A stretch of DNA of 64,000 nt. It comes from Trueperaceae bacterium. GTDB taxonomy: Bacteria; Deinococcota; Deinococci; Deinococcales; Trueperaceae. The position numbers and the translations under genes were made by a program. The stretch is from assembly GCA_965213705.1 (NCBI GenBank), contig OZ243913.1, forward strand, positions 2,528,001-2,592,000, read 5' to 3'. The stretch's first letter is position 1; the number at the start of each line of letters is the position of its first letter. The notes below the pieces were generated by a model. It did not search any database, was not told where the DNA came from, and saw nothing but the letters and a program-made list of their open reading frames with translations. Shown in pieces: positions 44,721 through 50,752 of the stretch.

Positions 44721-45797
44721 CTAGGGCGTCCTGAGGTAGCGCTCGATGTCCGCTTCGTGCGCCGCTAGGTCCAGGTTGGGGCGAAACACCCGCTCGCCCG
44801 CGTCGCTGCCGTGTAAAAAGTACAAGTAGTCCTGCCCGTCGGCGTCTTGGCGGACGGGTGTGAGCACGGCCTGCAGCGCGTCCTCGCCGGGGTTGTCGAT
44901 GGGTGTGGCGGGCAGGCCGGGCCGGGTGTACGTGTTCCAGGGCGTGTCCTGTTTGAGGTCGCCCGCGACGGCGTCGAGTTGCGGTAAGTCCTTGCCGAGT
45001 CCGTAGGCCACCGTCGGGTCGCTTTGCAGGAGCATCCCGCGCTCGAGCCGGTTCAAAAAAACACCTGCAATAATCGGCATTTCCGAAGCGTCGGCGGCTT
45101 CGGCCTGGACCATGCTGGCTAAGGTGACCCAGTCGGCGACGGTGAGGTGTTGGGCGGCGAGTGCGTCGGCGTACTTTTCACGTTCGGTCTCGAACCGGGC
45201 CAACATCGTTTCGACGACGGTTTCAGCGTCGCTGCGGACGGGCAACTCGTAGCCTGCGGGGAACAGGTAACCTTCTAAACTCAGGCCCACCGGGACGTAG
45301 TCGGGCCGCAAATTGCCCGGCTCGGTGAACAGTGCCAGCAACGCGGTTTTAGCACCAAAACCCAGCTTCTCCAGACGCACCGCGATGTCCACGAGCCGAA
45401 AGCCCTCGGGAATAACGGCGAACACGGTACGTGGGCGGCCTCCGGTTTGAAGCGTGTCGGCAGTTTCGGCCGCGCTCATGGCCGGGTCGAGCGTGTACAG
45501 TCCTTCGCCTATCGAGCGGTCGAGACTGCGGTAACGCAAGTACAGCCCGAACACGCGCGCGTCGTGGACGAGGCCCGCCTCGCTCAACGCCTGGGCGACG
45601 CGGTTGCCGCCCCAACCCGGCAACACCTCGAACTCGGTCGGGGCGCTCGTGCTCGAGACCGGACCGAGTTGCTGGCGCAACGCCAAAAAACCCGCTCCGA
45701 CAAGCAGGGCGATAAGCAAGAAGCTCCAACCGACAAAGCGTCTGCGACCCGGCCGGCGGGCAGGCGGGACGGCTGTGGACTTGGGTATATCAGCCAC
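44721..45797 (-). CDS. mltG: Endolytic transglycosylase MltG
   Basis: IPEG, LEGYLFP, ASMVQAE, LQSDPT, NTY..PGLP. Confidence 0.93.
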   Translation of the reverse strand: MADIPKSTAVPPARRPGRRRFVGWSFLLIALLVGAGFLALRQQLGPVSSTSAPTEFEVLPGWGGNRVAQALSEAGLVHDARVFGLYLRYRSLDRSIGEGLYTLDPAMSAAETADTLQTGGRPRTVFAVIPEGFRLVDIAVRLEKLGFGAKTALLALFTEPGNLRPDYVPVGLSLEGYLFPAGYELPVRSDAETVVETMLARFETEREKYADALAAQHLTVADWVTLASMVQAEAADASEMPIIAGVFLNRLERGMLLQSDPTVAYGLGKDLPQLDAVAGDLKQDTPWNTYTRPGLPATPIDNPGEDALQAVLTPVRQDADGQDYLYFLHGSDAGERVFRPNLDLAAHEADIERYLRTP

Positions 45798-45826
45798 GGA
45801 AGCTTCAGTTTACCCTTTATGGCTCG

Positions 45827-46255
45827 TTACGCGTTTGGTACGGTCTTACGAAGATAGGTTTCTAAGATGAGGACGGCCGCGGCCTCGTCGAGCAAGCCTT
45901 TTTCCTGCCGCTTTTTTTTGCGCATACCGCTCGTGACGAGACCGCGGCCGGCAAGCTGGGTCGTATAGCGCTCGTCTTCGAAGACGACGGTAAGACCCGC
46001 CGCTTGCAACGCTGCGGCAAAGTCCCGCACGGCCCGCGTTTGCGCCGAGTCGCCCCCGTCGCTCCGGCGCGGCAAGCCGACGACGACGCGAGATGCGTTC
46101 TCCGCCACCAGCCGCGCCCGCACCGCCGCCACGTCGTTTGTCAAGTTGCTACGGACGATGTAGCCGCGCCCGAAGGCGAACGAAGAACCAAGCTCGCCCC
46201 GCGCCACCCCGATGCGCGCCTCGCCCACGTCGAGCGCGATGACGGCCTCAGCCAT
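45827..46255 (-). CDS. ruvX: Holliday junction resolvase-like RuvX/YqgF
   Basis: ALDVGEARIGVA, VVGLP, DERYTT, AAVLIL. Confidence 0.93.
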   Translation of the reverse strand: MAEAVIALDVGEARIGVARGELGSSFAFGRGYIVRSNLTNDVAAVRARLVAENASRVVVGLPRRSDGGDSAQTRAVRDFAAALQAAGLTVVFEDERYTTQLAGRGLVTSGMRKKKRQEKGLLDEAAAVLILETYLRKTVPNA

Positions 46256-47087
46256 TATCCAGCCAGCCCTCGAGCACCGCCGCCACCCCGTCCGCGTCGT
46301 TGCTGCCGGTCACAAAGTCGGCCGCGGCTTTCGCCTCGGGCGCGGCGTTGGCGACGGCCACGCCGTAACCGGCCCAGGCAAGCATCTCCCTATCGTTGTT
46401 CTGGTCGCCGAAGGCCGCCACGTCCGCGGCGCGAAAACCGAACTTCTCGCACAGGTGTTCCAGGGCTTCGCGTTTGTTGACCGAGCGCGCCATCACCTCG
46501 AGCAACTTTTCACTCGTCCAGGTGGCGTAGACGGGCAAGCCGTGAAGGGCTTTCACCAGGGTCGGCGCGCTCAGGCTGGGATGCCGAAACAGCAGCTTGA
46601 CGGCGTCCTCGCCTAGAAAATCGCACACATCGCCGTGCCCGGTGGGAAACGGCAACCCGCGCGCCTCGAGGCCGGCGCGGCGCAGTTCGAACAGGGCGCT
46701 GTCCCAGTACCAGCCCCTGCGGGTCTCGAGGCCCGCCATCACCTCCGGGTGACAAGTCCGCAAGCGTGCGACGGACTCGAAGGCCAGGTCACGGTCCAGA
46801 CTGTGGCGGTACTCGAAGCTGTCGGTCGCGAAGTTCACCACAACCGCGCCGTTGAAGGCCAGGACGAGGTCGGCTATTTCCAACTGTTCCGCCAACACCC
46901 GCACGTGTCGCGGCGGGCGTCCGGTGCAGAGAACCACGCGCACGCCCCGCGCCTTGAGCCCGCGAATCGCCGCCACACTGCGCTCACTCACCTCGCCCTG
47001 AGACGTGAGCAACGTGCCGTCTAGGTCGAGGGCGACGAGCTTGGGCACGGAAGTACCGAGGACCGGGTGAAAAGCTGAGAGTGTCAC
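46248..47087 (-). CDS. Cof-type HAD-IIB hydrolase
   Basis: DLDGTLL, TGR, NK, FGDQNND. Confidence 0.92.
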   Translation of the reverse strand: MTLSAFHPVLGTSVPKLVALDLDGTLLTSQGEVSERSVAAIRGLKARGVRVVLCTGRPPRHVRVLAEQLEIADLVLAFNGAVVVNFATDSFEYRHSLDRDLAFESVARLRTCHPEVMAGLETRRGWYWDSALFELRRAGLEARGLPFPTGHGDVCDFLGEDAVKLLFRHPSLSAPTLVKALHGLPVYATWTSEKLLEVMARSVNKREALEHLCEKFGFRAADVAAFGDQNNDREMLAWAGYGVAVANAAPEAKAAADFVTGSNDADGVAAVLEGWLDNG

Positions 47088-49825: not shown

Positions 49826-49887
49826 CTAGTCCTCCTGAAAGCCGAAAGCCAGTTTACCCCGCGCACGCGCTTAAAAACGTTGCAAAC

Positions 49888-49991
49888 AAAAAAGACCGCG
49901 CTGGCAAAGCGGGTCTTGGGACGGCGGTACTTGTAAAAAATACCGCTTTTTAGGCTGCTCGAGGCTGCGGCAACATCATCGTGAGAGTGTA
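49888..49991 (-). promoter_or_regulatory. Candidate alaS attenuator: -10 box, leader peptide MMLPQPRAA (49950-49979), alternative hairpins, intrinsic terminator
   Basis: TACACT-6nt-ATG ATG TTG CCG CAG CCT CGA GCA GCC TAA; terminator AAGACCCGCTTTGCCAGCGCGGTCTTTTTT. Confidence 0.65.
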
Positions 49992-50030
49992 GCGGACCGA
50001 AGCGGGCTTTGTAAAGGCAGGTGCGGTCAA

Positions 50031-50249: not shown

Positions 50250-50528
50250 ATGGTTACACTTGATAAAGCCATGGACATGGTGATGGAGCTTTCGCCGGAT
50301 GAGCGGGAACTGCTGTTAGACATTGTGCGACAGCGACAAACCGACGCGAGGCGGGCTGAAATTGCCGGGAACGCGCGGGAAGCTAGGGCGCTGCTCGAGG
50401 CGGGCAAGCTCAAACCCGAGCCTTTGGACGAGGCACTTGTTCGGCTGCACGCTTCTCTCGACGAAACGGATGCACGAGGGAGCTGGTCTTCAGTCCCAAA
50501 TTCGAGCGTGCTTACCGGAGGTTCGTAA
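50250..50528 (+). CDS. Putative antitoxin with read-through C-terminal extension
   Basis: TAGAAT 6 nt before ATG; upstream of RelE-like toxin; probable ancestral stop at 50475. Confidence 0.7.
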   Translation: MVTLDKAMDMVMELSPDERELLLDIVRQRQTDARRAEIAGNAREARALLEAGKLKPEPLDEALVRLHASLDETDARGSWSSVPNSSVLTGGS

Positions 50529-50752
50529 AGCGGGACAAAGGTCTGCGGCGCAAGGTGGACGACGCCCTCGGGCTGATGAAACAAGATGTTTATTCGCCCT
50601 CCTTGCGTACCCACAAACTTTCGGGAGAACTAAGGGGACTTTTTGGATGCTCGTGTGGGTACGACTGCCGCATCGTGTTTTTTCTCGACACGGTAACTGA
50701 CCGAGAGCTTATTGTCCTGGTTGACATCGGCACGCACGACGAAGTGTACTAA
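50474..50752 (+). pseudogene. RelE/YafQ-like mRNA interferase toxin with ACG in place of its start codon
   Basis: Open frame (T)RELVFSPKFERAYRRF...LRTHKLSG...DIGTHDEVY. Confidence 0.75.

Follow-up and report, generated by a model that had tools for sequence, protein, structure and literature searches.

Sequence comparison makes it likely that the leader of the alanyl-tRNA synthetase gene (alaS) in the analysed window, that is, the whole 64,000-nucleotide stretch of Trueperaceae DNA, is an attenuator that depends on translation and responds to alanyl-tRNA. The element itself is real and conserved, and it is probably regulatory. It is chiefly the leader of a class V aminotransferase gene and is borne by alaS in only some lineages. 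An earlier note on the window had read it as a leaderless upstream open reading frame (uORF) with alanine codons that attenuates alaS. The frame, the terminator and the link with alanine found support, while both base pairings offered there as antiterminator fail in conservation. The parts of the leader are collected in Table 1; TACACT, the ATG, the peptide, the hairpin (H) and the terminator all lie on the minus strand at the positions originally given for them.

Table 1. Parts of the alaS leader, neighbouring genes and related leaders in the same genome (window positions unless marked C1)
Feature	Position	Strand	Remark
-35-like hexamer TTTACA	50010..50015	-	sequence; 18 nt before TACACT
-10-like hexamer TACACT	49986..49991	-	6 nt ahead of uORF ATG; leaderless start predicted
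uORF MMLPQPRAA*	49950..49979	-	ATG ATG TTG CCG CAG CCT CGA GCA GCC TAA
Predicted sensing site CGA-GCA-GCC (rare Arg and Ala codons)	49953..49961	-	conserved codon pair
Hairpin H, GCGGTA..TACCGC	49924..49946	-	begins 12 nt past first base of first Ala codon
8-nt linker, H to GACC strand	49916..49923	-	last two bases extend terminator stem here
Intrinsic-terminator-like hairpin GACC-CGCT/AGCG-C-GGTC	49888..49917	-	GACC/GGTC base, 1-nt 3' bulge, upper stem, U6
Second -10-like hexamer TAAACT, downstream of terminator	49851..49856	-	no good -35 seen
Shine-Dalgarno AGGAGG of alaS	49831..49836	-	sequence
alaS, full-length alanine--tRNA ligase, 892 aa	47147..49825	-	TIGR00344, 895 bits
Cof-like HAD hydrolase, RuvX/YqgF and YceG/MltG-like genes	44721..47087	-	downstream of alaS, same strand
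Second element copy, MSLAPRAF*	C1:3493805-3493898 (L132:8806-8899)	-	before class V aminotransferase, 3 kb from pheS
Leaderless uORF + terminator, aspS(ND)	C1:4003964	-	genome scan
Leaderless uORF + terminator, pheS	C1:3490026	-	genome scan
Leaderless uORF + terminator, leuS	C1:2863451	-	genome scan
Leaderless uORF + terminator, ilvB	C1:2657921	-	genome scan

The segment 49880-49950 is predicted to fold into two hairpins (-23.7 kcal/mol, z -3.76), an energy equalled by none of 200 shuffled sequences. The terminator was missed by a simple terminator scan because of its bulge. In agreement with the initial remark that no T-box is visible, a search of the alaS leader, only ~ 150 nt long, through Rfam (T-box included) gave no match at the gathering score or at E up to 10; a likeness to a T-box in this genome, GTACCGC..CGTCCC, is not conserved, and this candidate was rejected. 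The tandem Ala codons are by themselves weak evidence for a sensing uORF. Among 492 comparable short ORFs of this genome, 13 have AA in the last four codons and five have CGA-GCN near the end; it is conservation across genomes that raises the element above chance. The second -10-like hexamer (49856-49851) may be a basal alaS promoter and, lying behind the terminator, may bypass the attenuator; seven of the 11 alaS leaders with the element have such a hexamer in this place.

Homologues of AlaS were matched in 119 of 128 family genomes, and the upstream region could be read in 117, two being cut by contig ends. The element with its Ala uORF precedes alaS in 11 of these 117 Trueperaceae genomes, distributed over seven genera, and is absent from the remaining 106. 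Outside the family it was found before alaS in none of 14 genomes from four other families. A twelfth terminator-like match, before alaS of G124, was discarded on inspection, as it has neither uORF nor H. The 11 uORFs end in RAA (two), QAA, PAA, QAALTAVH (two), KAAI, QAAI, RAF, RAI and LAAE. Each carries Ala, and each contains either CGA-GCN or GCN-GCN; of the 10 anchored copies four keep CGA, and the other six have tandem Ala. The conserved core is CGA-GCN (or GCN-GCN) and not the tandem Ala codons first noticed.

Leaders of the genome studied here (G000) and of G001 are separated by an in-frame indel of 3 nt. At alaS loci that lack the element, a -10-like hexamer stands shortly ahead of the ribosome-binding site in 93 of 105 cases. 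In a quick tree of 51 AlaRS rows, four changes are required to account for six carriers, and well-supported branches force at least three of them. Gain or loss within a genus is indicated by G046 (L063): its alaS is preceded by a plain -10 without the element, which is carried by the congener G017. Duplication of alaS copies from the aminotransferase leader of their own genome found no support, the own copy ranking first in only one of eight testable cases. In the alaS leader of G053 (L119:265-435), the uORF ends in LAAE* and a folded insert of ~ 110 nt lies between its stop and the terminator; this leader is not matched by the covariance model R1 described below.

The second target came from a scan of this genome for a -10, an ATG, a short ORF, a terminator and a gene in series. 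It returned 10 candidates, six of which precede amino-acid genes: alaS, aspS(ND), pheS, leuS, ilvB and a class V aminotransferase. Cognate codons are present in the uORFs of aspS(ND) (N, D, D, N), pheS (F), leuS (LL-L) and ilvB (L, I), and these four uORF-terminator leaders are counted here as context for attenuation. The aminotransferase leader, with the uORF MSLAPRAF*, is a second copy of the element: its H and its GACC/GGTC terminator are those of the alaS leader, and its linker is 9 nt long. The nearest solved relatives of the enzyme are 2YRI/2YRR, followed by alanine-glyoxylate and serine-pyruvate aminotransferases, and no NCBIfam family is matched over its cut-off. We take 2YRI/2YRR to be the Thermus thermophilus alanine aminotransferase TTHA0173, a label for which a literature search found nothing. 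Judged from sequence, the class V protein is likely an alanine aminotransferase.

This gene was matched in 80 of the 128 family genomes. Among 69 upstream regions, which exclude the unpublished G111, the element precedes the aminotransferase in 61 (55 anchored automatically and six recognized by an in-frame CGA-GCN uORF and a terminator), and the remaining eight comprise one variant, MHSA*, and seven loci without such a uORF. The covariance model R1 was built from 21 sequences; among the 128 family genomes it found 58 matches, spread over 49 of them. According to their coordinates, 48 are before the aminotransferase (G111 included) and 10 before alaS; none of the 58 is elsewhere, with 35 candidates scored per genome, so that weak copies may be missed. 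In genus g5, the uORFs of two aminotransferase leaders (L163, L171) have grown to 32 and 43 codons and retain the frame to CGA-GCN. In genus g8, L157-L159 have a similar GACC..GGTC terminator before the aminotransferase and no Arg-Ala uORF within 520 nt, and the Arg-Ala uORF is present in their congener G008.

Elements were anchored by demanding CGAGC (aminotransferase rows), at least five pairs in H, and G(A/G)CC..GG(T/C)C; the invariance of these parts is therefore partly by construction. This gave 65 anchored elements, or 60 once five wrongly anchored rows were dropped. In all 65, the first ATG or GTG at least 5 nt after the best-scoring promoter sets the frame of the Ala codon, and this frame is open through Ala (27/27 genus-by-gene groups; related rows are not independent). 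The start codon lies 5-10 nt from the -10 in 65/65, which is compatible with the predicted leaderless start, and a hexamer of the TTTACA, TTCACA or TTGCA type is found 16-19 nt ahead of the -10 in most homologues. The frame is thus kept while uORF length ranges from 6 to 43 codons, with Ala at codon 5 to 35. The residue before Arg is Pro in the alaS uORF of the window and Ala in many aminotransferase leaders.

In this genome CGA makes up 9% of Arg codons, and tRNA-Arg genes were found with anticodons ACG, CCG, CCT and TCT and none with TCG, so that CGA needs tRNA-Arg(ICG) and an I-A wobble. For two other families, f3 and f4, any Arg codon was allowed in the search, which makes it an unbiased test of this codon; f4 was represented by 30 of 56 genomes and two additional ones. 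All 33 aminotransferase loci in f4 and f3 carry an in-frame CGA-GCT. Because one f4 protein aligns with 2YRI over all 353 residues, f4 is taken to represent Thermus and relatives. A CGA-GCN uORF is also present in 14 of 16 further Deinococcota loci.

These counts bear on the possibility that the nascent peptide itself arrests the ribosome, the sequence R-A-X-stop stalling on a ligand such as free alanine or an antibiotic in the manner of TnaC or of RAPP/RAGP, with induction by an excess of alanine or by the drug. The known RAPP/RAGP arrest motifs consist of Arg-Ala followed by Pro-Pro or Gly-Pro. Arg-Ala of the uORFs stands in their register, the stop is one codon past Ala in 39 of 65 uORFs, and a catabolic role of the aminotransferase is possible. 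A peptide sensor should however tolerate synonymous Arg codons, and CGA alone was seen (33/33); moreover, six of the 10 anchored alaS copies have Gln, Lys or Pro in place of Arg, and in every one of these six the Ala codons are tandem. Neither Pro-Pro nor Gly-Pro follows Arg-Ala in the 65 uORFs or in the 33 of f3/f4, the stop is 2-8 codons past Ala in the other 26 of 65, and induction of alaS by surplus alanine makes little sense. We consider peptide arrest improbable.

Distances around H are conserved as well. The conserved core, CGA-GCN or GCN-GCN, sits 11-13 nt before H: the spacing from Ala is 11 or 12 nt in 50/50 aminotransferase rows, where 9-14 were allowed, and the search was limited to 12-13 nt in alaS rows. 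H itself varies in length from 22 to 70 nt among homologues. It is followed by a linker of variable sequence, 4-12 nt long with a mode of 9 (60 elements; 3-13 allowed). In alignment A3, H and the terminator are 96% paired, with 11 pairs showing double-sided changes, and none of 500 shuffles is as good. Double-sided changes affect 7 of 8 pairs in H and four pairs in the terminator, where 94.6% of cells are paired. Sequence conservation of GACC/GGUC and of the first pairs of H is far beyond the needs of pairing.

On an Ala stall, a classical base-paired switch would engage either AAAGCGG with the 5' arm of the terminator (CCGCTTT) or ACCGC with its 3' arm, the two options left undecided in the earlier note. 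Both can form in this genome (-8.8 kcal/mol for AAAGCGG/CCGCTTT and -8.3 for ACCGC/GCGGT), and for the second, all 60 elements allow pairing of three core bases (RYY with GGU). They are nonetheless weaker than the helices to be displaced (-10.4 and -13.3), and conservation speaks against each. In A3 the AAAGCGG pairing is formed in 58% of cells, and the own partner beats partners from other genera in only 33 of 60 elements and shuffles in 28 of 60, compared with 59-60 of 60 for H and the terminator. ACCGC shows no double-sided change, 500/500 shuffles are as good, and the structure would still end at the U tract. We regard this switch as quite improbable.

A wider search led to the same result. 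Where the terminator is local, none of the candidate antiterminators a:c, b:d, b:c, uORF:c and uORF:d, nor any linker pairing, beats the controls, and no base-paired antiterminator was found in the 60 Trueperaceae elements tested. Whichever of the four ribosome masks is applied, the terminator stays in the minimum-energy fold of 60/60 elements, and the best fold lacking it costs a median of 7-11 kcal/mol more. In 14 of the 60, the U tract is displaced and a short helix connects uORF and tail, beating uORFs of other genera in 13 of the 14. The other 46, the element of the window included, have a local terminator for which no competitor was found. Compared with the usual make-up of a leader-peptide attenuator, the uORF with cognate codons and the (predicted) intrinsic terminator are thus present, and the exclusive antiterminator helix was not found. 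Its working would be attenuator-like, yet not of the classical 2:3/3:4 type.

The excess conservation in GACC/GGUC and in the first H pairs could point to an RNA operator independent of translation, in which a protein (AlaRS or another factor) sets termination by binding to H or to the bulged helix GACC/GGUC, the uORF being incidental. A G-U pair at position 4 of H would recall the tRNA-Ala acceptor, and such mimicry was rejected, since G-U occurs in only 15 of 60 elements and is missing from 45, that of the window included. The uORF frame is kept in 65/65, and outside Trueperaceae the local GACC/GGUC hairpin is gone while the uORF persists, which leaves the operator highly improbable. A similarly slim chance is given to CGA as the sensor in its own right, reporting supply of Arg-tRNA(ICG), inosine level or general elongation rate with alanine secondary: CGA is the least variable codon in aminotransferase and Streptomyces leaders, but six alaS copies lack it and have two Ala codons instead, and none of the targets, a likely alanine aminotransferase and, in both phyla, alaS, is related to arginine.

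Outside Trueperaceae, the entire leader is predicted to form one long hairpin, with the uORF as its 5' strand and a 3' strand that runs up to the U tract. Of 19 loci 16 could be parsed, and there the duplex between uORF and 3' arm beats shuffled uORFs in 16/16 and arms of other loci in 14/16, with sequences that differ between genera. As the uORF is here the 5' arm of the terminator, a ribosome on it would block the terminator directly. With the uORF masked, some Thermus-like leaders are predicted to form a substitute, if weaker, hairpin close to the U tract, and in these folds it argues against a clean switch. R1 weakly matched 5 of 10 other Deinococcota leaders (E up to 1). In Deinococcaceae-like genomes, the element was found neither before the aminotransferase (0/20) nor before alaS (0/4). 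Their aminotransferase promoters (L287-L305) have no uORF and a leaderless gene, most with repeated GCAAT..ATTGC inverted motifs upstream. For this lineage, sequence suggests that a transcription factor took the place of the attenuator at the aminotransferase.

For the translation-dependent attenuator that we prefer, which would be governed by dwell time, the following working is proposed. The transcript would start at or just before the AUG and would be translated in a leaderless manner. With CGA in the P site, the I-A wobble would slow the next codon, and a single Ala codon could in this way report a shortage of Ala-tRNA; where CGA is lost, the second Ala codon would substitute for it. The dwell would be prolonged by H, which lies 11-13 nt downstream, where the mRNA enters the ribosome. 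According to the accessible text of two studies, ribosomes pause at hairpins that stand 11-12 nt from the codon in the P site (PMC7282821), and CGA-GCG is among the inhibitory codon pairs of yeast (PMC6379720), an effect published for yeast and not for bacteria. A register of 11-12 nt places Ala, already decoded, in the P site, and thus fits better to a dwell amplifier than to the sensing step.

How the parked ribosome acts on the terminator would differ between families. Folding predicts that in Thermus-like, f3 and f5-type relatives, where the uORF is the 5' arm, the parked ribosome blocks directly. In the window and in most Trueperaceae, the folded H would bring the ribosome to within ~ 9 nt of the 5' arm of the local terminator, shortening the path between them from ~ 35 to < 20 nt. 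In the accessible part of a study on E. coli, ribosomes less than ~ 30 nt away repress an intrinsic terminator (PMC4824070). By this analogy, action by proximity across the folded H has, in our estimate, slightly less than an even chance; it is the weakest step, and because the terminator stays in the best fold under all masks, it rests on exclusion and analogy. Proximity explains why the spacings are fixed while the hairpin between them varies freely in length. It leaves the conservation of stem sequence unexplained, and the steric model does not account for the invariant GACC/GGTC and H base, an invariance partly imposed by anchoring. When alanine is plentiful, the ribosome would finish and leave, and transcription would stop at ~ 49888. 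When Ala-tRNA is short, it would linger at CGA-GCN, allowing read-through into alaS.

Expression of alaS is known to be controlled by an Ala T-box (Rfam RF00230) or, in E. coli, by autorepression; the T-box serves the same gene and senses the same signal, whereas sensing would be done here by the ribosome. Classical attenuators (trpL, pheL/pheM, thrL) resemble the element in the cognate-codon uORF, the intrinsic terminator and the read-through predicted on stalling. They differ in having a run of codons and an antiterminator helix, in place of one sensing codon behind a rare codon and no helix; terminator blocking would be direct in the other families and by proximity here. The accessible text on Corynebacterium ilvBNC describes a leader-peptide attenuator of three hairpins (PMC11857589). 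Nothing on alaS appears in the accessible parts of PMC4833913, PMC11857589 and PMC13434334.

For Deinococcus deserti, the available part of PMC4007540 gives 14 putative leaderless leader peptides, none of them for alanine: tyrS, thrS, trpS2, trpEGD, metG, aspS, leuC, leuS, asd, cysS, ilvBH, leuA, DAHP synthase and pheST. Both sets belong to the same phylum and share leaderless cognate-codon uORFs before synthetase or biosynthetic genes, and the leaders on aspS, pheS, leuS and ilvB make up a D. deserti-like set in this genome. Mycobacteria provide two parallels in the accessible texts. Poly-Cys leaderless sORFs form a 'ribulon', in which several loci are controlled by one amino acid, and the tested Cys case acts on translation initiation (10.1101/834739); leaderless uORFs, a single amino acid and multiple loci are common to both. 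The Ala-rich uORF of whiB7 is reported to respond to alanine and has many Ala codons (10.1101/2025.10.10.681568), but, different from the element described here, it works with an antiterminator and on resistance genes.

An Ala leader on alaS is already in print as an annotation. In Streptomyces lividans TK24, AlaL (SLIV_01313) lies before alaS (SLIV_01315) and, in the accessible text, is a putative leader that its authors call undescribed; it has 22 codons, three of them terminal Ala, its peptide includes A-R-A, and it is proposed as an attenuator, with no word there on the CGA codon (PMC8079986). Like the uORF in the window it is a short Ala-codon uORF before alaS, and CGA-GCN is common to its homologues and to our elements. 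Homologues of AlaL differ in that they precede a short (~ 390 aa) AlaRS-related gene, and no U-tailed terminator was seen. From 74 matched records of a plasmid collection, 12 actinobacterial alaS upstream regions were read, and GCG-CGA-GCN was present in nine, the other three having no uORF. The nine comprise all six short AlaRS-related genes, plasmid-borne, with an AlaL-type uORF and GCG-CGA-GCG, and three near-identical or related full-length alaS genes with a different uORF and GCG-CGA-GCT. The last are plasmid-borne Streptomyces loci (L383, L384, L394) with the uORF end ARAICVELEN*, CGA-GCT and a long hairpin, and they are not the published AlaL. Six of the actinobacterial alaS-type genes together have 290 Arg codons, only 2 of which are CGA. 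R1 matched none of nine Streptomyces loci at E up to 1, which means that the codon pair is common to both phyla and the fold is not. A metagenome scan with a degenerate AlaL-type pattern gave 11 matches and no alaS leader.

A literature search mostly outside the subscription journals turned up neither a description of an alanine leader in Deinococcota nor one of a sensor made of CGA-GCN. New are the order-wide link with the aminotransferase, the occurrence of CGA-GCN in two phyla, and a proposed switch that does without an antiterminator helix. The deinococcal list of leader peptides has no entry for alanine, and the sole alaS leader found in print is the annotation above. About a hundred natural variants offer a near-invariant codon pair in a fixed geometry. 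A codon pair that is slow in yeast appears here to serve regulation in a bacterium, and antitermination may proceed without an alternative RNA helix. The element also predicts a physiological role for a widespread, structurally solved and poorly assigned aminotransferase. Since Thermus-like genomes carry it, the system is testable in a laboratory organism that supplies structural work with a standard ribosome and RNA polymerase. Tentatively, and with doubts about the whole, one may go further: CGA-GCN could be a dedicated single-codon Ala sensor in two phyla, H in Trueperaceae could act like a spool that parks the ribosome by the terminator for helix-free antitermination, the targets could form an alanine ribulon, and the aminotransferase could be the alanine-making enzyme of Thermus and Truepera relatives.

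Some observations concern the surroundings of the leader. The alaS gene, the only one in this genome with a TIGR00344 match above the family cut-off, is possibly co-transcribed with the Cof-like HAD hydrolase, RuvX/YqgF and YceG/MltG-like genes. The C-terminal half of the AlaRS model also matches this genome twice on its own, at C1:225214-226350 (+) and C1:1025225-1025800 (-), where AlaX-type editing proteins are likely encoded. Divergent from the leader, positions 50250-50700 (+) of the window hold two overlapping short ORFs of 92 and 125 aa without a Pfam match, whose layout resembles that of a toxin-antitoxin pair, by likeness only.
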